IMG/VR virus record: IMGVR_UViG_3300045836_000189 | Span: 116,296 to 136,295 of that record | Origin: an uncultured virus (IMG/VR IMGVR_UViG_3300045836_000189) | Taxonomy: Duplodnaviria > Heunggongvirae > Uroviricota > Caudoviricetes | Length of the DNA stretch: 20,000 nucleotides | Reading direction: 5' to 3' (one strand) | Shown: positions 760-19,842 of the stretch, one piece after another | Layout: each line of letters begins with the position of its first letter | How positions within the stretch are numbered: the stretch's first letter is position 1 | Made by a program: the position numbers and the translations under genes | The notes under the pieces: model-generated | What the model was told of the DNA's origin: nothing | What the model saw: only the letters and a program-made list of their open reading frames with translations | The model's database searches: none

Positions 760-1062
760 TTAGTCCTCATCATAGAGGATAGTGAACAACATTTTTTCTT
801 CTAACTTCTCCAGCCCCGCATCCAGTTCACCGAAGATGCTGTCCAGGCTGGACATTGACTCATTATTGGCCCATTCCACACGGTATCCCTTTCCCAGTTT
901 TTCGTTATACTTCTTGTCCCAGTCATCTATGTGATAAGTGTATTTGGTTCCGGCAGTACCTACTTTTCCGTAGGTTGCCACGAACTGATTTCCACTAATC
1001 TCTTCCATTTCATAGAACTTATGACTGGAACCGTCCTTAAAAACGAGTCTTGCTTTTTTCAT
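760..1062 (-). CDS. WGR-domain protein with shared C-terminal helix
   Basis: SSHKFYEM...TYGKVGTAG...KKYNEKLGKGY is a typical WGR signature (YGK variant); tail FGELDAGLEKLEEKM. Confidence 0.85.
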   Translation of the reverse strand: MKKARLVFKDGSSHKFYEMEEISGNQFVATYGKVGTAGTKYTYHIDDWDKKYNEKLGKGYRVEWANNESMSSLDSIFGELDAGLEKLEEKMLFTILYDED

Positions 1063-1595: not shown

Positions 1596-2651
1596 TTATA
1601 CCATGAACCGATAAGGAGCTGTGAATTTCAGGACGATCTTATGGAATGGAGGATCGTCTGTCTGACTACCATTGTACTCAATAAGCAGGTCTTTCTCTTC
1701 CTGAGTAACTTTACATTCAGCAAGCCTTACCTGGCAGCGGTAATTATTTACTTCCGGTTCTATATCATTATCTGCATCAAAGCCCTCTGGTAATTTTGGA
1801 TACTTACTACGGTTAAATAAGAACATTTCGGTATCCCCGGATATTTCTACAAAGGATTGCCACTCCCACTTGCCGTCTACCAGCTCATTTACTTCGTATC
1901 TCCGATTGGTGCTCTCCAGGTTCAGGTGGGCAGCACAGGCTATAGCATCTTCATTAAAAAGATTCATCTCTTTAATAAGATTTACCAGCAGGTCAAACGT
2001 CTGCATGTTGGTTTTCCGGAAAAATTTAAAGATGGAAGCCTTGTGTGCTTTGTTTACCAGCAAGTCATCTATTACTTCATTCATAGTGGCTTCATCCAGA
2101 TCCGTGTAATCCTTACGGTATTTAACCCTGTTTAGCCTGTTCATGAGGAAGTTATTGATCTTCATCTCATTAACAGTCAGCAGGAATATAAACCGGGTAG
2201 GATAGTTCCCATCCATCAAAAGAAGTAAATCATTACTCTTATCACCATTGGGATAGATCTTTTCAAATTCATCAATGAAGATGATAGCATCCGGATACTG
2301 GGTCAGGTAGTCAATAAAGTCACTACCAAAGAATGGTTCAGTAATCATGATTACCGGCTTACCGGAATCAATACAGAACTTCTGGGCAGTAATGGTTTTA
2401 CCAGAGCCTTTTAGTCCGGAAAGAATGATACCCATGTTTTTCTCCGAGTTGTGCTCGTATGATTTCATCCACCGCTCAATAATGCTTTGGTCTCCGTAAA
2501 TTTTTTTAGGGAGTCTGAAATTCTCTTTCTGCACCAGGTAGTAACCATCCCTGGGATCAAACTTCAGCATGTAATTACCCGGAGGCAGGGAATCATGAGT
2601 GTTGGATACGTTTGCTGTCTTAAAGACACCATTTGATTCAATGATTTTCAT
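1596..2651 (-). CDS. AAA+ ATPase (phage, single AAA module)
   Basis: Walker A GLKGSGKT, Walker B IIFIDEFEK, LLLMDG and NRLNR motifs. Start placed at ATG 2651 (MKIIESN) rather than GTG 2708, which lies inside a hairpin. Confidence 0.85.
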   Translation of the reverse strand: MKIIESNGVFKTANVSNTHDSLPPGNYMLKFDPRDGYYLVQKENFRLPKKIYGDQSIIERWMKSYEHNSEKNMGIILSGLKGSGKTITAQKFCIDSGKPVIMITEPFFGSDFIDYLTQYPDAIIFIDEFEKIYPNGDKSNDLLLLMDGNYPTRFIFLLTVNEMKINNFLMNRLNRVKYRKDYTDLDEATMNEVIDDLLVNKAHKASIFKFFRKTNMQTFDLLVNLIKEMNLFNEDAIACAAHLNLESTNRRYEVNELVDGKWEWQSFVEISGDTEMFLFNRSKYPKLPEGFDADNDIEPEVNNYRCQVRLAECKVTQEEKDLLIEYNGSQTDDPPFHKIVLKFTAPYRFMV

Positions 2652-2747
2652 ATAATTATCTGTACGGATTAATGGAGTGACAAAACAATAGCCGGTAGCG
2701 GTCACCACCGGCTATAAATAGTTTAAATGATGGTTAGTGTTACAGGC

Positions 2748-3536
2748 TTAGAGGCTTACCTCTTTAGTCTGTTTTTTCTCTGCAGGTGCAGTGATAAAGT
2801 GGGCATACCGGGTAAAGAAATCCTTTACCTTCTGCTCATCTATGCATTCTGCAGCAATAGTTTGTTTCTGCTTTCCGATGTAACGGAGCATGACATTGTG
2901 GTCATAGGCTTTGCCCAAAGATCTTACTGTGTTCACAAACTCCTGGATGAAGTACTTTTGACAAGTCCTTCCCATCTCCGGCATGAGTTTCATCACTTCT
3001 GATGTCTGGGAAACCAATAGTTCAGCAGGGCCCTCATTCACAACGGTAAAGGTTCCGGTCTTCAGGGCTGAGTTGATACGGTGACCGAAGAAAAAGCCTG
3101 TATTGCTTAAGATACCTGCTGCTATGGTGATCTCTATATCATACTTGTTATAGATAACCATCAGCTTGCGGTAGTCCGGCTTAATACTGCTCCAGGCATG
3201 GATGTAATCATCCAGCTTCCAGGATTTGGAGCTTGAGTTTAAAAGAGCAATGGTCTTCACCAGGTCCTCATAATTACTGATGCCATGGATGGTCACATAG
3301 GGAATATCTATACCCAGTGCCATACAAGCTTCATACTTGTGCTGGCCTTCTATGATATAGGTTTCCTTCTTTCCGGTAATAAAGCTCAGTTCTGCTACAA
3401 TGATTGCCTGAAGCATCCCTATTTCAGAGATGGATTTTTTCAGCTTGGCAATGTGTGCAGGGGCTGTTTCACGGTTGATCCCAACTAACTTCTTGAAGCC
3501 CTTCTTGGAATCCTTTTTGAGAATTTGGATGTTCAT
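2748..3536 (-). CDS. ParB N-terminal-like domain protein
   Basis: INR...HIAKLKKSISEIGMLQAIIV...YIIEGQHKYEAC resembles the ParB/Srx 'IIDGQHR' family; followed by 'WKLDDYI'. Confidence 0.7.
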   Translation of the reverse strand: MNIQILKKDSKKGFKKLVGINRETAPAHIAKLKKSISEIGMLQAIIVAELSFITGKKETYIIEGQHKYEACMALGIDIPYVTIHGISNYEDLVKTIALLNSSSKSWKLDDYIHAWSSIKPDYRKLMVIYNKYDIEITIAAGILSNTGFFFGHRINSALKTGTFTVVNEGPAELLVSQTSEVMKLMPEMGRTCQKYFIQEFVNTVRSLGKAYDHNVMLRYIGKQKQTIAAECIDEQKVKDFFTRYAHFITAPAEKKQTKEVSL

Positions 3537-4421: not shown

Positions 4422-4682
4422 TTACTTCAGTATCACAGTGACACTGGTAGACCTCTGGTCCAATTGTGATCGGGTTATGATACCAGCTGCTTTCAATTCC
4501 TTCAGCCAGCGTTTAATGGTTGAATGACCCGCATTCAACTCATCAGATAGACGGTTGATACCTGGATTACAGGTGTTGGTGATGCTGTCTTTGTAACAGC
4601 ATAATAGTGCATAGAGGCTTTTTGCTCCGGGAGACAAGGAAGGATCAGCCAATACTTCTTTACTGACCTTGCCAAAACCCAT
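4422..4682 (-). CDS. Standalone winged HTH protein (HTH_36/replication-initiator N-terminal-like)
   Basis: LSPGAKSLYALL...CNPGINRLSDELNAGHSTIKRWLKELKAAGII. Confidence 0.8.
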   Translation of the reverse strand: MGFGKVSKEVLADPSLSPGAKSLYALLCCYKDSITNTCNPGINRLSDELNAGHSTIKRWLKELKAAGIITRSQLDQRSTSVTVILK

Positions 4683-4706: not shown

Positions 4707-5333
4707 CTATTGATCACCCATGTCTGGATCTTTTCCAAAAAGTTTTCCCAGCAGCTCATTGAGGTTGCCTTTAACACCGGACTTCTTCATACTCTGAATT
4801 TCAGAATCAATCTGGTCCATTTTGTCTTTGGGGCAAACCTTTTCTATGAACTTATCCCAGGTAAAATTGCTGTCCTTGATAGCTTTGATGGCCATTTGGA
4901 TAGGAGTATACCGTGATTTGGTAAACATATCCTCAATAACCATCCTCAGTCCTCTGACGAATTTATCCTGAGCATCCTCTTCCTTCTTGTCTCCCTCCGG
5001 CTTCTTTTCGGATTTTTTGTTCTCCATTGCCTCAAGCTCTTCATAGAGCCCCAGCACTTCTGAACGGACATCCCTGAAGATCAATAGACAATAGGTCTGC
5101 TCTTCCGGGGTTCTCAGATGAGAAAAGGCCAGGTCAAGAGTGCCTGTTGCAGTGGTCAGCTCATCCGGAGCCTCATCCGGGCTGTCATACAGGTCTTTAA
5201 CCAGCATCCTGGCGGACAATGCCTCAAACAGGATGGCATTGCTCACAAAGTTTCTCTGATAGAAAGAGAGACCCAGGGAATCTTCCCAGTTCTCTGCTTT
5301 GTGGTTCAATTTGGGTAGGATTAGCTTTTGCAT
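4707..5333 (-). CDS. Hypothetical protein
   Basis: 208-aa ORF with A-rich start, collinear with neighbours. Confidence 0.75.
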   Translation of the reverse strand: MQKLILPKLNHKAENWEDSLGLSFYQRNFVSNAILFEALSARMLVKDLYDSPDEAPDELTTATGTLDLAFSHLRTPEEQTYCLLIFRDVRSEVLGLYEELEAMENKKSEKKPEGDKKEEDAQDKFVRGLRMVIEDMFTKSRYTPIQMAIKAIKDSNFTWDKFIEKVCPKDKMDQIDSEIQSMKKSGVKGNLNELLGKLFGKDPDMGDQ

Positions 5334-5351: not shown

Positions 5352-5382
5352 TAAAAATAATAAGATTCTGTAGAATACCAAA
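5352..5382 (-). promoter_or_regulatory. Putative Bacteroidota-type sigma70 promoter
   Basis: Minus strand reads TTTG-19 nt-TATTTTTA, matching the -33 TTTG / -7 TAnnTTTG consensus with one mismatch, about 18 nt upstream of ATG 5333. Confidence 0.4.
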
Positions 5383-5424
5383 AAACTTCTACAGTTTAAA
5401 CCTAAAAAATTTGTAGAGTTAGGC

Positions 5425-5878: not shown

Positions 5879-6220
5879 TTATTTCAGCTGTTCAGCTAAT
5901 TGGTCAAGAGCTTTGTCAATTTCCTCTATATAGTTAGTAGCATAAGAGAGGGCCTGAAACCTCTTACGGCAATAGTATCCGGCACCAAGTCCCAGGTTCT
6001 CATCATTGGTGATATTATCCCAATGGACGTATACAATGGTTCCTTTTTTCTTTTTTCCAAATGTATTTTGGTCTACATAGTTCGGACCTATGGCTGTGAT
6101 GGTGCCCTCCGTAACGTTGGCATAATGACCAGTGAAATATCCGGGAGCTTTCCCCCAGTCTGGTCCTTTTGTTACCCGGTCTCCAATACTTGCTTCCGGG
6201 GCATAAACAGGCTTGTTCAT
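5879..6220 (-). CDS. MIB/HERC2-like (SH3-fold) protein with shared C-terminal helix
   Basis: IGDRVTKGPDW...GTIT...VYVHWDN; tail IEEIDKALDQLAEQLK. Confidence 0.7.
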   Translation of the reverse strand: MNKPVYAPEASIGDRVTKGPDWGKAPGYFTGHYANVTEGTITAIGPNYVDQNTFGKKKKGTIVYVHWDNITNDENLGLGAGYYCRKRFQALSYATNYIEEIDKALDQLAEQLK

Positions 6221-6516
6221 GATTTTTGTAGTTTTTCTTCCAGCTTATCAAGGGCTTCTGTGAGTTCATCCAGGGACGGAGGTTCATCAAGGTAATACAG
6301 GTCATAATAACCAGCATGTCCCACTCTGTAATTCCAAATAACCTTGGAGCCTTCCCACTGTACATCTGCCCAAAAGCCTGTACTAATTGATTCGCTCACA
6401 AGGGTGCCTGTTCCTGTACCTCCTCCATGTATATCCTGGTCACCCCATTCCCAGTCTCTACCCCGTTTTACACGAGCTCCTTTCCTGTAGTTCTCAGGAG
6501 TTACCGGTATCTTCAT
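6217..6516 (-). CDS. MIB/HERC2 domain protein with shared C-terminal helix
   Basis: GARVKRGRDWEWGDQDIHGGGTGTGT...WADVQWEG...NYRVGHAGYYDL closely follows the recalled MIB/HERC2 consensus; tail LDELTEALDKLEEKL. Start placed at ATG 6516, after AAGGAG. Confidence 0.85.
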   Translation of the reverse strand: MKIPVTPENYRKGARVKRGRDWEWGDQDIHGGGTGTGTLVSESISTGFWADVQWEGSKVIWNYRVGHAGYYDLYYLDEPPSLDELTEALDKLEEKLQKS

Positions 6517-6811
6517 CACTGCTCCTTTCCAGCTTGGAAGCAAGCCTGTTCAGAGCAGCTTCAATATCCTTAAACTCTACTTCGGGGTAGATCAGAGGAA
6601 TCTTTCCAGACTTTATCTGGTACCCTGGCCATATCCCTTTGGCAAGCTGTGGAAATCCTTTCCATTTTACCTGGATGATTTCTGAGTACTTGTGGATCTC
6701 TACAATCCTGCCCTTTTTTACTCCTTTAAACCGGGAATCGTGAGGTCCCCAGTCCGGACCGGGAGCCACTATGTCTCCAATTTTGGCAGTATTAACGTTA
6801 ACTGGTTTCAT
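6494..6811 (-). CDS. MIB/HERC2-like protein with shared C-terminal helix
   Basis: IGDIVAPGPDW...GRIVEI...IQVKW; tail FKDIEAALNRLASKL. Confidence 0.7.
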   Translation of the reverse strand: MKPVNVNTAKIGDIVAPGPDWGPHDSRFKGVKKGRIVEIHKYSEIIQVKWKGFPQLAKGIWPGYQIKSGKIPLIYPEVEFKDIEAALNRLASKLERSSDEDTGNS

Positions 6812-7112
6812 GATTTATCCTTTCTTGCTTTTCAATGAGTTTCTCCACTTCCTGGAATAAGGTTGTTAAATCCTCTGTAGTTGAATCATAGACTGACAGT
6901 TCGTATTTTCCCGCCGCTCCAATTCGGTAAGAATAGTTGAATCCTCCTGGTTTCCACCTCACATCAGCATACCATCCGGCAATGTCATCACATACTTCGG
7001 TAATAATACCATACTGACTAACACCAACGTGATGATTCTCCGAATGATTCCAATCAGGGCCTTTGCAGACTTTCATGCCTACAAAAGCATTTTCATGCGT
7101 CACCTTTTCCAT
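6798..7112 (-). CDS. MIB/HERC2-like protein
   Basis: VGMKVCKGPDW...GIITEV...ADVRW...YSYRIGAAGKYEL; tail LTTLFQEVEKLIEK. Confidence 0.8.
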   Translation of the reverse strand: MEKVTHENAFVGMKVCKGPDWNHSENHHVGVSQYGIITEVCDDIAGWYADVRWKPGGFNYSYRIGAAGKYELSVYDSTTEDLTTLFQEVEKLIEKQERINHETS

Positions 7113-7714
7113 AGAACTTTACTCATCAGATACAGTGTTTCTATAAATATCCTGGGGATACTCAGCAGGAACTTCTTGATCTTCCTGGGAAGACGTAGCA
7201 GCCAGGCTATCAGGTTACCATGCTTTTTACCCAGCATGATGTCTGCCTGGATCTGGTCCAGTCCATCCATGATCTGTTCAATGGTCTCCTGTTTCTTCTC
7301 CACTGTAGATTCAGATACATCTTCTGCTGGAAGGGTAGCACCTGTGTAAACAGGTTTTGAGAAAGAGGAAGATTTACCATGTGCAGCCAGGAAGTTATCT
7401 TTGTATTCCTGCCATTGATCCACGGTTGGGAATCCTTTTCCAGGAGAAAGTTCCTGTTCATAAACATGCCTTAAATCATGCCGTGAACTGAGTCCTGTTC
7501 TATATTTAGCTGACTTTCCATTATCCCATTCTACTTCACAGTACAAGCCGTTCTTAAACACAATAACAATAGTCCCCATGGTTCCGGGAAGCATCTCATA
7601 TATAGTGAAGGGAAAGTCAAAAGTGGTATCCCTGAACCAATCGGGGCCACCCGCCATTACTCTTAGTCCGACTCTTACTTCATCATAGCGTACAGGATCT
7701 CCTGGTTTTAACAT
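7100..7714 (-). CDS. MIB/HERC2-like protein with C-terminal extension
   Basis: VGLRVMAGGPDW...GTIV...CEVEWDNGKSAKYRTG...HDL; helix IEQIMDGLDQIQADI, then a basic amphipathic tail. Confidence 0.75.
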   Translation of the reverse strand: MLKPGDPVRYDEVRVGLRVMAGGPDWFRDTTFDFPFTIYEMLPGTMGTIVIVFKNGLYCEVEWDNGKSAKYRTGLSSRHDLRHVYEQELSPGKGFPTVDQWQEYKDNFLAAHGKSSSFSKPVYTGATLPAEDVSESTVEKKQETIEQIMDGLDQIQADIMLGKKHGNLIAWLLRLPRKIKKFLLSIPRIFIETLYLMSKVLWKR

Positions 7715-8040
7715 TGGTTTCCTCCTTTCTGCTCTGCCACTTTAAGCAGGAGCAGATCCAGATTAAAATAGATTTGTTCAATAACAGGGAGCTGCTTCAC
7801 CAGATTCCTGGGAAGGTCTCTAATGGATACCTTGAAGTACTTATTCTTCCTGTTATTCTTACAGCCCCAGGCATACTTGATTTCTTCAAACCTGAGTTTT
7901 TTGTTGTGTGTGATCTCTTTAACTGTCAGCACCTGTCCCGGCTTTACCCAGGACTGCTCACAGTCATTTAGTATTTTGATTTTGCAGCCTATAAGGGACT
8001 GGCTGATTTCAGGATGGATAAGATCTTCATAAGTAGCCAT
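7708..8040 (-). CDS. Hypothetical beta-rich protein (paralog of 8043..8351)
   Basis: LIGCKIKILN...GQVLTV...EI...WGCKNN...YFKV; tail IEQIYFNLDLLLLKV. Confidence 0.7.
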   Translation of the reverse strand: MATYEDLIHPEISQSLIGCKIKILNDCEQSWVKPGQVLTVKEITHNKKLRFEEIKYAWGCKNNRKNKYFKVSIRDLPRNLVKQLPVIEQIYFNLDLLLLKVAEQKGGNQC

Positions 8041-8042
8041 AA

Positions 8043-8351
8043 TTAACTCAGTTTATCTTCTAGCCGCTCCAGATGAAGTAGTATATCATCCATCAGCGGT
8101 GAGAGTGCTTTATCAATATGTTTTAACTCATAGATCATCTCCTGACCTTCCAGTACCTGGAATAATTTTCTACCGGAGTTATTGGCACATGACCAGTAAC
8201 GGCCTCCTATTTCCTTGATACCCAGGTTCTTTGACCGGTATCCGGAAACAGTATAGATCTGTCCATTCTTCAGGCGTTCAAACCCATTGTTGTTCAGGAT
8301 CAGGATCTGTTTGCCTATTAACTCCCTGCAGGCATCCGGGAAATAGCTCAT
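8043..8351 (-). CDS. Hypothetical beta-rich protein (paralog of 7708..8040)
   Basis: LIGKQILILN...GQIYTV...EI...WSCANN...LFQV; tail MDDILLHLERLEDKLS. Start likely ATG 8351. Confidence 0.7.
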   Translation of the reverse strand: MSYFPDACRELIGKQILILNNNGFERLKNGQIYTVSGYRSKNLGIKEIGGRYWSCANNSGRKLFQVLEGQEMIYELKHIDKALSPLMDDILLHLERLEDKLS

Positions 8352-8461
8352 GATGATTGAAATTGAATACAGTACTAAATGGTAAAGCATGACAGACCAA
8401 ACCTGGAGAGGAGTGGATATTACTACCCCTGTGTCCCCATTAAGCCTGCCATGCTTATGTC

Positions 8462-8821
8462 CTACTTCTTTGCTTTCAAAGCTTCCAGTTTCCGGTTCAG
8501 CAGATACTTGGCCACTGGTTCATAAGCACGTAAAAGCACATAGTGAACCATCCCCTGGATAGCACACATTATAAAGGCCGTAAACAAGAAGTTGTACAGC
8601 CAGTAGTGTGATACTACCACCACAGGGAGATCGCTCGTCAGAAGCAGGATAAACACGCACCAGTGGCCAAAGCACCAGGGACAGTGAATCAGGTCTTCTA
8701 TCTTTTGATTGAGAGGGCTGATCCACTCCCGGAATGGTTTGAAGATACCGGTGGATGTGACGGTGAAGGAGATGGAAGCACAGCATAGTGCTCCCATGAC
8801 CAGGAATAGGAACTCTTTCAT
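8462..8821 (-). CDS. DUF1360-like membrane protein
   Basis: IFKPFREW...LIHCPWCFGHW motif with flanking transmembrane segments. Confidence 0.65.
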   Translation of the reverse strand: MKEFLFLVMGALCCASISFTVTSTGIFKPFREWISPLNQKIEDLIHCPWCFGHWCVFILLLTSDLPVVVVSHYWLYNFLFTAFIMCAIQGMVHYVLLRAYEPVAKYLLNRKLEALKAKK

Positions 8822-8822
8822 G

Positions 8823-9125
8823 TTATATTACCTCATCAGCTTCTTCAAGGCCATCTTCCGAAATCCGGTCCCCATCCTGCAGATCTGAGTCTTCAGGGAC
8901 TTCCCTTAAGATCTCAAAGTCTGATCCTCCACATCCACAACCTGAGTACACCACCAGCCTTACTTTGCGGGTCTTTGGCATATAAGCTCCCAGAATGTCC
9001 TCTATACTCATCTCTTCTGCCTTTTTGATCACAGGAGCTTTTTCCTGTTCCTTGTGGAACTCTTCTCTCAGTTGGGCCAGGTTGTCCTTCTCCTGACCGG
9101 CTTTACGGTTTTTAAGCTTTTGCAT
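8823..9125 (-). CDS. Hypothetical protein with GCGCG motif
   Basis: Overlaps the ATPase stop; YSGCGCGGS and an acidic C-terminus. Confidence 0.7.
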   Translation of the reverse strand: MQKLKNRKAGQEKDNLAQLREEFHKEQEKAPVIKKAEEMSIEDILGAYMPKTRKVRLVVYSGCGCGGSDFEILREVPEDSDLQDGDRISEDGLEEADEVI

Positions 9126-10281
9126 AACTTGAGTTTATTAATTTGATTGATTCTTCCAGGTCTGCTGCAGTAACCCCCTTAGGAGTTTTCTTGGTAGTAG
9201 TCATCCTGGTCAGGGCTTTGCGTACAGCACCTTTGGCAATGGCTTCCACCATAGCTCCCGATACTTTACTCTTACAGGGAAGACTAAATAACATATCAGC
9301 TCCTTTGATGGCCAGGTCTTCTACCTTGTCATGGCATTTTACCTTCTTAAGGTGGATCTCAAAGATCTCCTTGGTATCCGGGTGATCCGGACGGTTGATG
9401 CCAATCTTCAAGTCTATCCTTCCTTCCCGGACAATAGCCTCATCCAGTGCATTAGGGAGATTAGTGGCCAGGATGAAGATGGGATTGTGCTCTTTTTCCA
9501 GTCCGTCCATTTCTGAAAGGAACGTAGGCACAATGGTCATCTCCACGTCTGATGATTTACCGCTGCCTCTCTGACGGAGCAGGGCTTCTGCTTCATCCAT
9601 GAATACAACTGCACGCTGGCCGGTCTTTTTACAGTACTGGCGGGTAGCATGGAACATGTGGGCTACTTTCTGCTCTGCCTCACCTACGAACTTACTCAGC
9701 ATCTCAGCTCCTTTTATGTAAACAAAGGCTGCGGGATCCACTTTTGTGGAACCAAGGATCGTAGAGGCAATGGCTTTACCGATCAGGGTCTTGCCACATC
9801 CCGGAGGACCGTAGAGTACCAGGCCGGGAAAATCTCCCAGACCCATCTCTTTTGCCAGCTCCTGGTGTTTCAGGGGCAGCTCAATGGCTTCACGGATGTT
9901 GCTTAACTGTGATTTAAGTCCACCGATCTCATTCCAGTCAATCAGGTTGAAATGAGGAATGTCAGTTACTTTCTCCAGCTCTTTGGGAACCACGGCAATG
10001 ATGGCGGATCCAATACAGATCACCTCTGTTCCCGGCTCAAGAATTTGGGTAATAGGGTCTCCGAAGATAGGCTCTTCATTCAGGAACATAACCGTTCCGT
10101 TTACCCGGTAATACTGGGCATTGTTATGAACAAAAGGGCCAGCTACAATGGTGTGTACTTCTTTTTTCTCACCAAGGAACTGCTCCAGCATCTGCTCATA
10201 TTTATCAACCTGCTCTCTGAGGGCTGATAATTCGTCTGTTGGGGCTACGGGAGCCTCAAATGTTGCTTCTTCCTGAAACAT
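9112..10281 (-). CDS. ARC/Mpa-like proteasome-type AAA+ ATPase
   Basis: WNEIGGL; Walker A GPPGCGKT; pore loop KGAEMLSKFVGE; Walker B VVFMDE; RGSGKSSDVEMTIVPTFLSEMDG; SRH ATN...LDEAIVREGRID; SGAMV; N-terminal coiled coil LSALREQVDK. Start placed at ATG 10281. Confidence 0.85.
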   Translation of the reverse strand: MFQEEATFEAPVAPTDELSALREQVDKYEQMLEQFLGEKKEVHTIVAGPFVHNNAQYYRVNGTVMFLNEEPIFGDPITQILEPGTEVICIGSAIIAVVPKELEKVTDIPHFNLIDWNEIGGLKSQLSNIREAIELPLKHQELAKEMGLGDFPGLVLYGPPGCGKTLIGKAIASTILGSTKVDPAAFVYIKGAEMLSKFVGEAEQKVAHMFHATRQYCKKTGQRAVVFMDEAEALLRQRGSGKSSDVEMTIVPTFLSEMDGLEKEHNPIFILATNLPNALDEAIVREGRIDLKIGINRPDHPDTKEIFEIHLKKVKCHDKVEDLAIKGADMLFSLPCKSKVSGAMVEAIAKGAVRKALTRMTTTKKTPKGVTAADLEESIKLINSSYAKA

Positions 10282-10389: not shown

Positions 10390-10432
10390 AAAAAAAGCCG
10401 AACTTGTAGAGGTTTATTCTACAAATCCGGCT
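10390..10432 (-). terminator. Intrinsic terminator
   Basis: AGCCGGATTTGTAGA-ATAAACC-TCTACAAGTTCGGCT followed by a T-run on the minus strand. Confidence 0.8.
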
Positions 10433-10509
10433 CTAACTTAGAGATATATGAGGAGTGTGGACAACCTGAGTTCTCCACAACGTTAAGTGGTGGTGTGGGT
10501 CAACTCAGG

Positions 10510-11247: not shown

Positions 11248-12195
11248 TTATTTTTTGTTGTCCTGGTTTACAGTAACCTCAGACTTGGCAGCTTCAACAG
11301 CTTTAGCCAATTGGCCAGGGAAAGCTTTGATCTGCTCTTTTAGTTCAGCAATCAGTGCTTCCTGGGTAGAGATGGTACCTTTCAGGTAATCCACGTCTTT
11401 TTCCAACAGGGCTATCTTAGCATCTTTCTCTGCTTTCAGAGAAGAGATCTTAGAGCCTTCTGAAGCAAACACTTCAGATTTGGCGGCTTTCACAGCAGCT
11501 TCGATCTGAGCCTGTACGTCTTTAGCCTCAGTAGCTTTGAAGTCTTTAAGCGTAGTGTACTCTTTAGCGTCCACCAGCACTTTTTCATAAATGGAGGCAA
11601 TCTTTTCAGCGGCCTTCAGGTTCTCATCCCTTAAAGCAATACTGTTGTCATAACGGGTCTGCTCCATTTTACGGCTGTGCTCCAAAGCAAGTTTGGCAAT
11701 TTCCTCACCAGACTTCACACGGGTTTCTTCTACACGGGCATTAGAGGCCGCAATCTTCTCTTCATTTTCAGCAATGATCTGATCCAGGCGGGCATTGAGG
11801 GCATCAATTTTCTCCTGGTTCTCAATCTCTGCTTTCTTCAGACCAAAGCTCAGGTCATCAGCAGCTACCTGGGCACGTTTTTCCAGGTCAGCAAATAATT
11901 TTTCCAGGTTAAGGGCTTCAGTACCTTCTTCAGATACAAAATCCAGCTCCATTTTACGCTTAGCCAGGTCAAACTGGTTTTGTAACTCCTGGAGAGCTTT
12001 GGTATGTTCCTGTTCACGTTTAACAGCATTGTCTTTTACGGTCTGGGCCTGACGAGCAAGGTCCAATAAGGCACGCTCAATCTGAGAAGAGCTTAGTGGG
12101 CCGTTCTGATACGCAGCCAGACGTAATTGTAGTTCTGCAGCTAATTCTACTAATTGTGATTTGTTTTTGCTGTTTAATTGTGCTTCTGTAAACAT
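11248..12195 (-). CDS. Long coiled-coil protein, possible Rho-N/HeH-like N-terminus
   Basis: Heptad-rich A/E/K/L composition throughout; N-terminus QLNSKNKSQLVELAAEL. Confidence 0.8.
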   Translation of the reverse strand: MFTEAQLNSKNKSQLVELAAELQLRLAAYQNGPLSSSQIERALLDLARQAQTVKDNAVKREQEHTKALQELQNQFDLAKRKMELDFVSEEGTEALNLEKLFADLEKRAQVAADDLSFGLKKAEIENQEKIDALNARLDQIIAENEEKIAASNARVEETRVKSGEEIAKLALEHSRKMEQTRYDNSIALRDENLKAAEKIASIYEKVLVDAKEYTTLKDFKATEAKDVQAQIEAAVKAAKSEVFASEGSKISSLKAEKDAKIALLEKDVDYLKGTISTQEALIAELKEQIKAFPGQLAKAVEAAKSEVTVNQDNKK

Positions 12196-19157: not shown

Positions 19158-19499
19158 TCATGATTGTTTCAGTTTTTCAGAGAGCTGGTCTAATGCAGTC
19201 TCTATTTTGTCAATGATATGTGGATTTGTTAGTTGACTGATGTTAACGGGTCTGTTTACTTGGTCATAAGCCTCTATTTCATAATCTTCAGCATATCTCC
19301 AGGAATAGGATTTCCCTGCAGCACGGTAATTCAAAGGATCAAAACAGATTCTTGTGTTACCGTTTGTGTCATCTCCTCTTAAGTCTATTTCTGGCCGTAA
19401 CCAGTCACAGTCCTCCCGTTGCTTAAAGACAAAGTCTTTTTTCCAGGCATCAAACTCTGTGTTTTCCAATAAGACAATATAATCCCCCTGCTTAAACAT
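19158..19499 (-). CDS. Hypothetical protein with shared C-terminal helix
   Basis: FKQGDYIV...WRYAEDYEIEAY...PVNIS; tail IDKIETALDQLSEKLKQS. Confidence 0.8.
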   Translation of the reverse strand: MFKQGDYIVLLENTEFDAWKKDFVFKQREDCDWLRPEIDLRGDDTNGNTRICFDPLNYRAAGKSYSWRYAEDYEIEAYDQVNRPVNISQLTNPHIIDKIETALDQLSEKLKQS

Positions 19500-19842
19500 C
19501 TTTCCCCCCTTTTAACTTATCTTCCAGTTGATTTAAGGCTTCATCCAGTTTTTGTATGGTTGGTGTATAGTCTACCTCAGAGATGTTAATAGGACCCTCA
19601 GCTTTATTGTAAGCATCTATCTCCTCCTGGGTAGCAGGACGCAGATCTACTAAAGAAAAATTCATACCCCACCTATTATGTTCCAGGATGGCAACCTTAC
19701 GGTGAACATTTCCAGATGGTAGAGCATCATCTTCTTCATTATAAGTGCACATTGCCACTGTACCTATGAGAGATTGATATTTAAAATATCTTGAGGTACA
19801 TGATTTTATTACTACAATATCTTGATTTCTCACTGTTTCCAT
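19492..19842 (-). CDS. Hypothetical protein with shared C-terminal helix
   Basis: NQDIVVI...LRPATQEEIDAY...PINIS; tail IQKLDEALNQLEDKLK. Confidence 0.8.
   Translation of the reverse strand: METVRNQDIVVIKSCTSRYFKYQSLIGTVAMCTYNEEDDALPSGNVHRKVAILEHNRWGMNFSLVDLRPATQEEIDAYNKAEGPINISEVDYTPTIQKLDEALNQLEDKLKGGKDV

Follow-up and report, generated by a model that had tools for sequence, protein, structure and literature searches.

A Shared C-Terminal Helix on Diverse Small Proteins of an Uncultured Phage and Its Candidate AAA+ Partners

A library of small proteins that share one C-terminal amphipathic helix is encoded by the uncultured virus IMGVR_UViG_3300045836_000189 (IMG/VR), designated G000 here. 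G000 is a record of 136,295 bases, and the stretch analyzed, called the window, is its final 20 kilobases (kb; 20,000 nucleotides). Seven genes of the library form an array in the window downstream of a gene for an AAA+ ATPase resembling Mpa/ARC of the Pup-proteasome system. The helix, called tail A, is sequence-specific, is conserved at the protein level, and is carried by diverse small N-terminal domains (heads). We regard this docking-tail library as real and previously undescribed. It is probable that the tail is read by a single partner. The proposal that the partner is the Mpa-like ATPase of the phage itself is tentative; other phage AAA+ ATPases fit the distribution of the tails as well or better.

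The terminase, portal, and capsid genes of G000 match phage families. Its capsid protein is 22–28% identical to those of crAss-like phages, Cellulophaga phi17:2/phi4:1, and one Leptolyngbya phage. From this similarity G000 is called a crAss-related phage here, and its host may belong to Bacteroidota. Two relatives were central to the comparison. G001 is a 135-kb genome whose ATPase is 54% identical to that of G000, and G027 is a near-identical strain (ATPase 99.8% identical). G000 has 62 genes in common with G001 and 3–45 with any other record. Tail A is the helix common to G000 and G001; a second C-terminal motif in G001 is called tail B. Coordinates refer to the window unless another sequence is named.

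The Shared Tail and Its Conservation

As had been read from the sequence in the original prediction, the ATPase gene, two small genes, and seven further genes (8351 to 5879) follow one another on one strand. The seven array genes are 2 bases apart or overlap by 4–23 bases. When a position-specific scoring matrix (PSSM) was built from the seven tails, the top eight of the other 618 open reading frames (ORFs) of G000 were all ORFs of 92–116 amino acids (aa), in which the match lies 18–25 residues from the protein end. Among the top 15 non-training rows, an 83-aa ORF and two matches lying within long proteins were excluded, and 19 tail-A genes were accepted in G000.

Leave-one-out scores were 15–32 bits for 15 of the 19 genes and 3–9 bits for four. 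The helix had been predicted on all seven array genes; it is clear on four of them, but three (7708–8040, 7100–7714, and 6798–7112) are among the four weak ones of the genome. They score 8.1, 8.8, and 3.0 bits, respectively, when left out, against 5.9 bits for the best non-member, and their shuffle p values are 0.03, 0.20, and 0.12. A PSSM built from G001 alone gave at least 9 bits for 12 of the 19 G000 tail genes and for one non-member, an integrase-like gene. As background, 3 of the 3,326 ORFs in 13 other phage records reached at least 11 bits with this PSSM. The integrase-like gene (G000 109182–110297, plus strand) encodes a 371-aa candidate tyrosine integrase, whose C-terminus scores weakly on the tail PSSM, probably by chance.

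The consensus of 40 tails from the two genomes G000 and G001 is hydrophobic at positions 1, 4, 8, 11, and 15, which corresponds to the a/d positions of a hydrophobic heptad; 65% of the tails have an extra hydrophobic position. Leu is found at position 8 in 39 of the 40 tails, Asp, Asn, or Glu at position 9 in 39, and Lys at position 14 in 30. One position differs genome-wide, being mostly Ala in G000 and mostly Asn or Asp in G001.

The tail could be a DNA repeat or recombination site rather than a peptide signal. This was rejected on codon usage: identical residues use the same codon at a frequency of 0.40 (0.35 expected) in G000 and 0.60 (0.56 expected) in G001. Codon choice is thus near random at identical residues, indicating that selection acts on the peptide. 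The tails had been proposed to serve as handles, and conservation at the protein level is borne out by codon use and by the cross-genome PSSM. The idea that the tail was copied from the coiled coil of the ATPase was not supported, with 59 of 60 ATPase N-termini scoring below 11 bits. Relative to G000, the G027 array contains an additional tail gene, an allele at 56–59% identity, and one replaced gene. These differences indicate that heads turn over while the tail persists.

Heads of the Tail Proteins

The original prediction named SH3-like and WGR domains as heads. Two of the seven array heads pass the threshold of a Pfam family, MIB_HERC2 (PF06701; 33.5 bits), but the WGR gene lies outside the region from 5879 to 10281 to which the prediction referred. 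All the tail genes described here are on the minus strand. The MIB_HERC2 heads are those of 6217..6516 (51.4 bits), which has a strong tail and the 56–59% identical allele in G027, and of 6798..7112 (41.9 bits), which has the weakest tail. The 204-aa gene at 7100..7714 has a MIB_HERC2-like head below the cut-off, and the head of the 105-aa tail-A gene at 6494..6811 aligns with the MIB_HERC2-like group. The remaining array genes encode 102 aa (8043..8351; start deduced from its allele in G027; head without a Pfam family), 110 aa (7708..8040; weaker tail), and 113 aa (5879..6220; strong tail, with a different tail gene in its place in G027).

The WGR-domain protein with tail A is encoded at 760..1062 and has a tailed orthologue in G001. 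Two more tail-A genes lie upstream of the ATPase, at 19158..19499 and at 19492..19842, the latter with a 57% identical allele in G027. MIB_HERC2 is matched at E <= 0.01 by 12 of 62 tail proteins, and WGR (PF05406) is found as a single head; most heads match no Pfam family.

In the 204-aa protein the helix is internal (near residues 144–159) and is followed by a basic amphipathic C-terminal segment, which may be a membrane anchor. Basic, aromatic, or amphipathic extensions follow the tail in some proteins (7100–7714; L227:16840–17205; P0184), and their composition suggests membrane attachment. The ending of the WGR protein (760–1062) after tail A resembles the type-B motif of G001, without scoring as type B.

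The ATPase and Its Two Partner Genes

The ATPase gene (9112..10281, minus strand) encodes 389 aa from an ATG at 10281. The structural model (predicted local distance difference test, pLDDT, 90.0) contains a coiled-coil helix at residues 15–37, a single OB barrel with strands at 41–97, and then the AAA module, which has Walker A, an F-V-G pore loop, Walker B, and an arginine-finger motif. The best NCBIfam model is TIGR03689 at 231.5 bits, which does not reach the curated cut-off of 504.75, and the top structural match in Foldseek is Mpa (7px9). The protein is therefore Mpa/ARC-like as predicted, and both ATPase motifs quoted in support are present, the coiled-coil one at residues 18–28 and the other at residue 237.

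Mpa has a double OB domain, and its GQYL end docks on the 20S core (described in PMC8755798). The phage ATPase has one OB domain, with about 57 beta-barrel residues before the AAA module and no tandem pair. It ends in Ser-Tyr-Ala-Lys-Ala, without GQYL or HbYX; true ARC loci in the same scan end in GQYL. No Pup, PafA, Dop, or 20S gene had been noticed in the window, and none was found when the search was extended to the genome. A Pup with C-terminal GG[EQ] was not detected in G000 by an 8-sequence Pup profile, a search with no positive control genome, and the GG[EQ] ending is absent from the tails and from gene 2. The Pup ligase family PafA/Dop (PF03136) and 20S subunits (PF00227) were each found in none of five phage records, with positive controls. 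The most fitting reading of the ATPase is that of an unfoldase working on its own; it does not belong to the Pup-proteasome system. In two related phages (L006/L068 and L009/L071), separate ORFs in different frames encode the N-domain and the AAA part of the ATPase.

Gene 2 (8823..9125, minus strand) encodes 100 aa, modelled as a low-confidence N-terminal helix followed by a beta-hairpin. Its Cys-Gly-Cys-Gly sequence is invariant in 15 aligned sequences and is placed at the turn of the hairpin. At distant loci, the position of gene 2 holds a 60–105-aa protein whose N-terminus is of low complexity; it also has an acidic helix and, at its end or close to it, a cluster of Cys residues. This distant group aligns weakly with the Pup helix (probability 19%, E 0.0012, 17 columns); the value for gene 2 of this clade is 0.1%. 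The two groups align with each other at 7.8%, having only the Cys motif and the position in common. The helices of gene 2 reach at best 5.6 bits on the tail-A PSSM among 26 distinct proteins and do not score as tail A. A ubiquitin-like fold for gene 2, suggested by weak Atlas rows, was not supported: no chain among 48,161 reached Z >= 5, and those rows were filled by the helix alone.

Gene 3 (8462..8821, minus strand; 119 aa) encodes a hydrophobic, DUF1360-like protein with an invariant Cys-Pro-x-Cys, which is probably a membrane protein. It scores 17.7 bits against DUF1360 (PF07098; gathering threshold 21). Of five homologues tested, one passes this threshold (36.9 bits), and DUF1360 clusters are indicated by Atlas features. 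In phage records of 39 to 482 kb, 17 of 19 distinct short ATPases of the family are followed by a DUF1360-like gene that encodes Cys-Pro-x-Cys. The ATPase, the Cys-Gly-Cys protein, and the DUF1360-like protein form a conserved module, and the two small genes are the ATPase's own conserved partners. Scanning cellular genomes for gene 3 returned 17 loci; the ATPase is at one of them and tails are at none. On a 125-kb contig of a Patescibacteria metagenome-assembled genome (L405:3907–6282), the ATPase gene, a Cys-ended Pup-like gene, and a DUF1360-like gene occur together.

Distribution of the Tails and the ATPase

G001 encodes 22 tail-A genes and 26 small genes with tail B, which is absent from G000. 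Tail B is located at the very end of the protein and reads acidic-Leu-x-x-Ala/Ile-Arg-x-Ile-Ile-Tyr-x-Asp (loci L227, L228, and L233; 257–6253, 19732–20663, 117013–119405, and 127550–134735). Fourteen of the 22 tail-A genes of G001 lie within 5 kb of the ATPase, and four interrupt the module between genes 2 and 3. The tail-A genes as a group lie nearer to the ATPase than do other small genes (p = 5e-7) or tail-B genes (p = 2e-6).

Two genomes have tails next to the ATPase, and in four more cases tails and ATPase are on one contig, judged from matching contig sizes: 11 of 30 tail proteins from outside these genomes are on contigs of 16,431, 24,366, 27,595, and 61,949 bases, the sizes of the contigs of four close relatives of the ATPase. 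Thirteen of the 30 are on contigs shorter than 10 kb, and two have no contig record. The 30 come from a profile search of 1.84 billion proteins, which gave 94 matches; 46 were small proteins distinct from the queries, 43 of them with the tail. As the profile itself held the tail and about nine of the 46 are strain variants, this indicates spread and not enrichment.

No tail array was observed in eight near-complete, capsid-similar records without the ATPase, which have 0–2 isolated matches. Two DNA-pattern scans (36 and 21 stretches) recovered tail arrays only in this clade. Tail arrays in phages without this ATPase, named beforehand as the case that would count against the link, were therefore not found in the records and scans examined. 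MIB_HERC2-like heads from elsewhere have no tail in any of 11 loci, and the ATPase is in none of the 10 records examined. When further tail genomes were sought by way of MoxR (5 loci), WGR (3), MIB_HERC2 (13), and the two DNA patterns, nothing beyond G001, G027, and similar fragments was recovered. Word-indexed searches aimed at tail proteins gave 2 and 8 matches. No different shared tail was found de novo in the tail-A-negative ATPase phages G002, G005–G008, and G011–G018. G009 gave a diffuse graph without a motif, and its sole tail match is on a 1,789-aa protein. In G030 (L367:15224–16593), five tandem paralogues of 89–95 aa have similar N- and C-termini; this record has a short MoxR and no ARC-like ATPase.

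Candidate Partners of the Tail

Our tentative reading is that the tail is the docking helix of about 20 interchangeable adaptors and that their hub is the Mpa-like unfoldase of the phage. On Mpa, the Pup helix lies antiparallel to the coiled coil that it binds (PMC8755798). By analogy, the tail would pack antiparallel on the coiled coil of the phage ATPase and hold the folded head and its cargo toward the pore. Since there is no disordered threader like that of Pup, the adaptor would be spared and the target unfolded or pulled from a complex. The targets may be host defence or other host proteins, as the turnover of heads suggests. In the ancestral module, the small Cys protein might have been a ligase-free Pup-like handle tying the motor to the membrane protein, and one phage clade might have extended it by placing a handle on many binding domains. 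We infer adaptor function, unfolding, and anti-defence targets alike. A ligase-free "programmable unfoldase", in which a protease-less proteasome-type motor has at least 20 swapped adaptors and the shared helix replaces pupylation, is a somewhat more doubtful extension. If it is true, the phage could dismantle a changing list of host targets, and G001 would run two such tag systems side by side.

In favour of the ATPase as hub are the motif statistics and protein-level conservation of the tail, the anatomy of the ATPase, the clustering and insertion in G001, the size-matched contigs, and the absence of tail arrays from the ATPase-lacking records and outside MIB_HERC2 loci examined. Other observations weigh against this reading. 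The tail had been likened to the Pup helix, and the likeness is weak: hhalign gives a probability of 1.8% for tail A against Pup, and real Pups score only 2.5–9.0 bits on the tail PSSM. Such similarity is what acidic amphipathic helices often give, although one of the ten stray single tail matches in 141 loci was Pup. Charges do not match either. The mean charge of the coiled coil is -3.7 in the tail-bearing clade vs. -1.7 in outgroups, and that of the OB domain is -4.7 vs. -0.8; the tails are neutral to acidic. The ATPase occurs without tails in G002, G004–G006, G009, and the fragments G007 and G008 (for G004, most of the record was examined). All seven tail-positive ATPase rows fall in one clade of 18 rows (97% by the Shimodaira–Hasegawa-like approximate likelihood ratio test, SH-aLRT, in a quick tree), so the co-occurrence may be a single inherited event; the larger number of genes that G000 has in common with G001 than with any other record points the same way. 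Six further contigs of 98–142 kb (P0002, P0007, P0008, P0010, P0014, and P0016) have ATPases of this clade. In G000, the distance to the ATPase is no shorter for tail genes than for other small genes (p = 0.14). Four of the 30 outside tail proteins are on contigs of 20–137 kb unmatched among the best 120 of 1,796 ATPases. Tail B in G001 needs a second hub or another explanation. Residues specific to the ATPases of the clade lie mostly in the AAA part and the C-terminal extension; one is found where the coiled coil ends. A predicted complex of the N-domain dimer (residues 8–110) with a tail segment (62–99 of the 6217 gene) scored 0.00 in two runs, with the fold of the partner uncertain, and weighs neither for nor against the reading.

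Another phage hub would leave the adaptor library unchanged, and we give this a lesser but real chance. The hub would be a MoxR ATPase or its partner, the second AAA ATPase, or a 208-aa protein, and the Mpa-like ATPase would work only with genes 2 and 3. G000 has four AAA+ ATPases. Two are MoxR-type, each with a neighbouring partner (G000 95099–96691, 93338–95089, 113997–115223, and 112760–114013), and are shared with G001; the other two are in the window. The second AAA ATPase of the window (1596..2708, minus strand; phrog_2376), which we take to be BCS1-like, has an orthologue in G001 directly followed by six tail-A genes. The 208-aa protein of no known family (4707..5333, minus strand) is encoded after the tail array in G000 and G001, and in none of the other 16 records. 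Both MoxR genes of G000 have tail clusters beside them, and across the two genomes the 101-aa and 208-aa genes outrank the ATPase in closeness to tail genes. MoxR2 and its partner, the long MoxR1 with its helical 88-aa C-terminal extension, and the 208-aa, 101-aa, and SPFH-like genes are found only in G001 among 17 other records. The tail-negative G030 (43% complete) has a shorter MoxR1 without the extension. The MoxR ATPases thus match the tail distribution better than the ARC-like ATPase, and the three-gene module is conserved also in tail-less phages. However, only two tail genes of G001 lie within 5 kb of MoxR1, compared with 14 at the ARC-like ATPase, and the short size-matched contigs bear three or four tail genes with the ARC-like ATPase.

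The tail might instead bind a conserved host machine, such as a Clp-type ATPase, and its adjacency to the phage ATPase would reflect a shared variable region. SPO1 Gp53, which binds ClpC (PMC6873191), is an earlier case of a phage adaptor for an AAA+ protein of the host. The missing charge match on the phage ATPase and the lack of significant clustering there in G000 are consistent with it. The tight clustering in G001, including the insertion inside the module, argues against it. The consensus difference between G000 and G001 suits a co-evolving phage partner, but different hosts would also explain it. We consider a host machine improbable.

A similarly small likelihood is given to self-association, in which the tail is a coiled coil and homo- or mixed oligomers lend avidity to weak heads without a separate hub. 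The clean a/d heptad and the frequent extra hydrophobic position fit this. In contrast, the near-invariant Leu, the conserved Asp and Lys on unrelated heads, and the constant position at the end of the protein point to one receptor, and about two heptads are short for a stable coiled coil. Least likely of all is an address or turnover tag (particle packaging or a degron) on heads that act alone: T4 internal proteins share a capsid-targeting sequence and the two tail types of G001 could be two addresses, but some tails are internal or have hydrophobic or basic extensions behind them, and the genes are in a variable non-structural arm.

Other Features of the Window

A terminator-like hairpin (10394..10434, minus strand) is upstream of the ATPase gene. 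A related inverted repeat is near 5369–5420, past the array and a 139-aa gene. Inverted repeats with TGTAGA/TCTACA arms bracket the run from the ATPase to the 139-aa gene; the other genome sites are at 75909 and 91061 (four in total). A promoter scan showed no excess over shuffles. Genes around the array include a macro-domain-like gene (1064–1552), a ParB-like gene (2748–3536), an HTH_36 gene (4422–4682), and a long coiled-coil-like gene (11248–12195).

Implications and Comparison with Known Systems

One 16-residue handle would explain about 20 genes per genome that otherwise have no assigned function. Naming its binder would expose how a phage remodels host proteins without a tagging enzyme or a protease. 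If the reading is true, the heads list host targets under arms-race pressure, and a compact unfoldase with a genetically encodable handle would be a useful tool for taking chosen proteins apart in bacteria. The trio of ATPase, Cys-Gly-Cys protein, and DUF1360-like protein gives DUF1360 a first functional context. No description of the module or the tail was found in the open-access literature searched. A survey of jumbo phages (PMC7824862) mentions, in the part relevant here, MoxR-vWA, BCS1, ClpA, and ClpX, and no proteasomal-type ATPase module.

The tail may work like Pup on Mpa, like MIM1 docking on Vps4, or like SPO1 Gp53 on ClpC. The phage ATPase resembles Mpa/ARC (TIGR03689, PDB 7px9) in its N-terminal coiled coil, its OB domain, and its AAA module with the F-V-G pore loop, and, weakly, in the Pup-like small gene after the ATPase in distant phage loci. 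It differs in its length of 389 aa, in having one OB domain instead of two, in lacking GQYL, and in residing in a genome without Pup, ligase, or 20S genes. The candidate phage handle is also gene-fused and C-terminal on folded heads, and has no disordered threader.

MIM1 of ESCRT-III is a short Leu-rich C-terminal helix on several proteins that recruits the AAA+ ATPase Vps4 via its MIT domain (as described in PMC7240154). The phage tail is likewise a short, shared C-terminal Leu helix. The i, i+4, i+7 spacing of leucines in MIM1 is similar to that in the tail. In contrast to Vps4, no MIT domain was detected on the phage ATPases or the MoxR1 extension by Pfam or PDB sequence match, and MIM-bearing proteins are one homologous family and are themselves substrates. 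SPO1 Gp53, as presented in PMC6873191, is also a phage protein that redirects an AAA+ machine, but it is a single protein on a host ATPase, without a shared tail library.

MIB_HERC2 and WGR proteins differ from those known elsewhere in being stand-alone phage proteins of about 100 aa here. A general parallel is seen in F-box and SOCS-box adaptor libraries and in poxvirus ankyrin-F-box proteins. These belong to eukaryotic ubiquitin ligases, for which no sequence relation is expected, but they likewise combine a variable binding domain with a constant short docking motif and are expanded and swapped under conflict.

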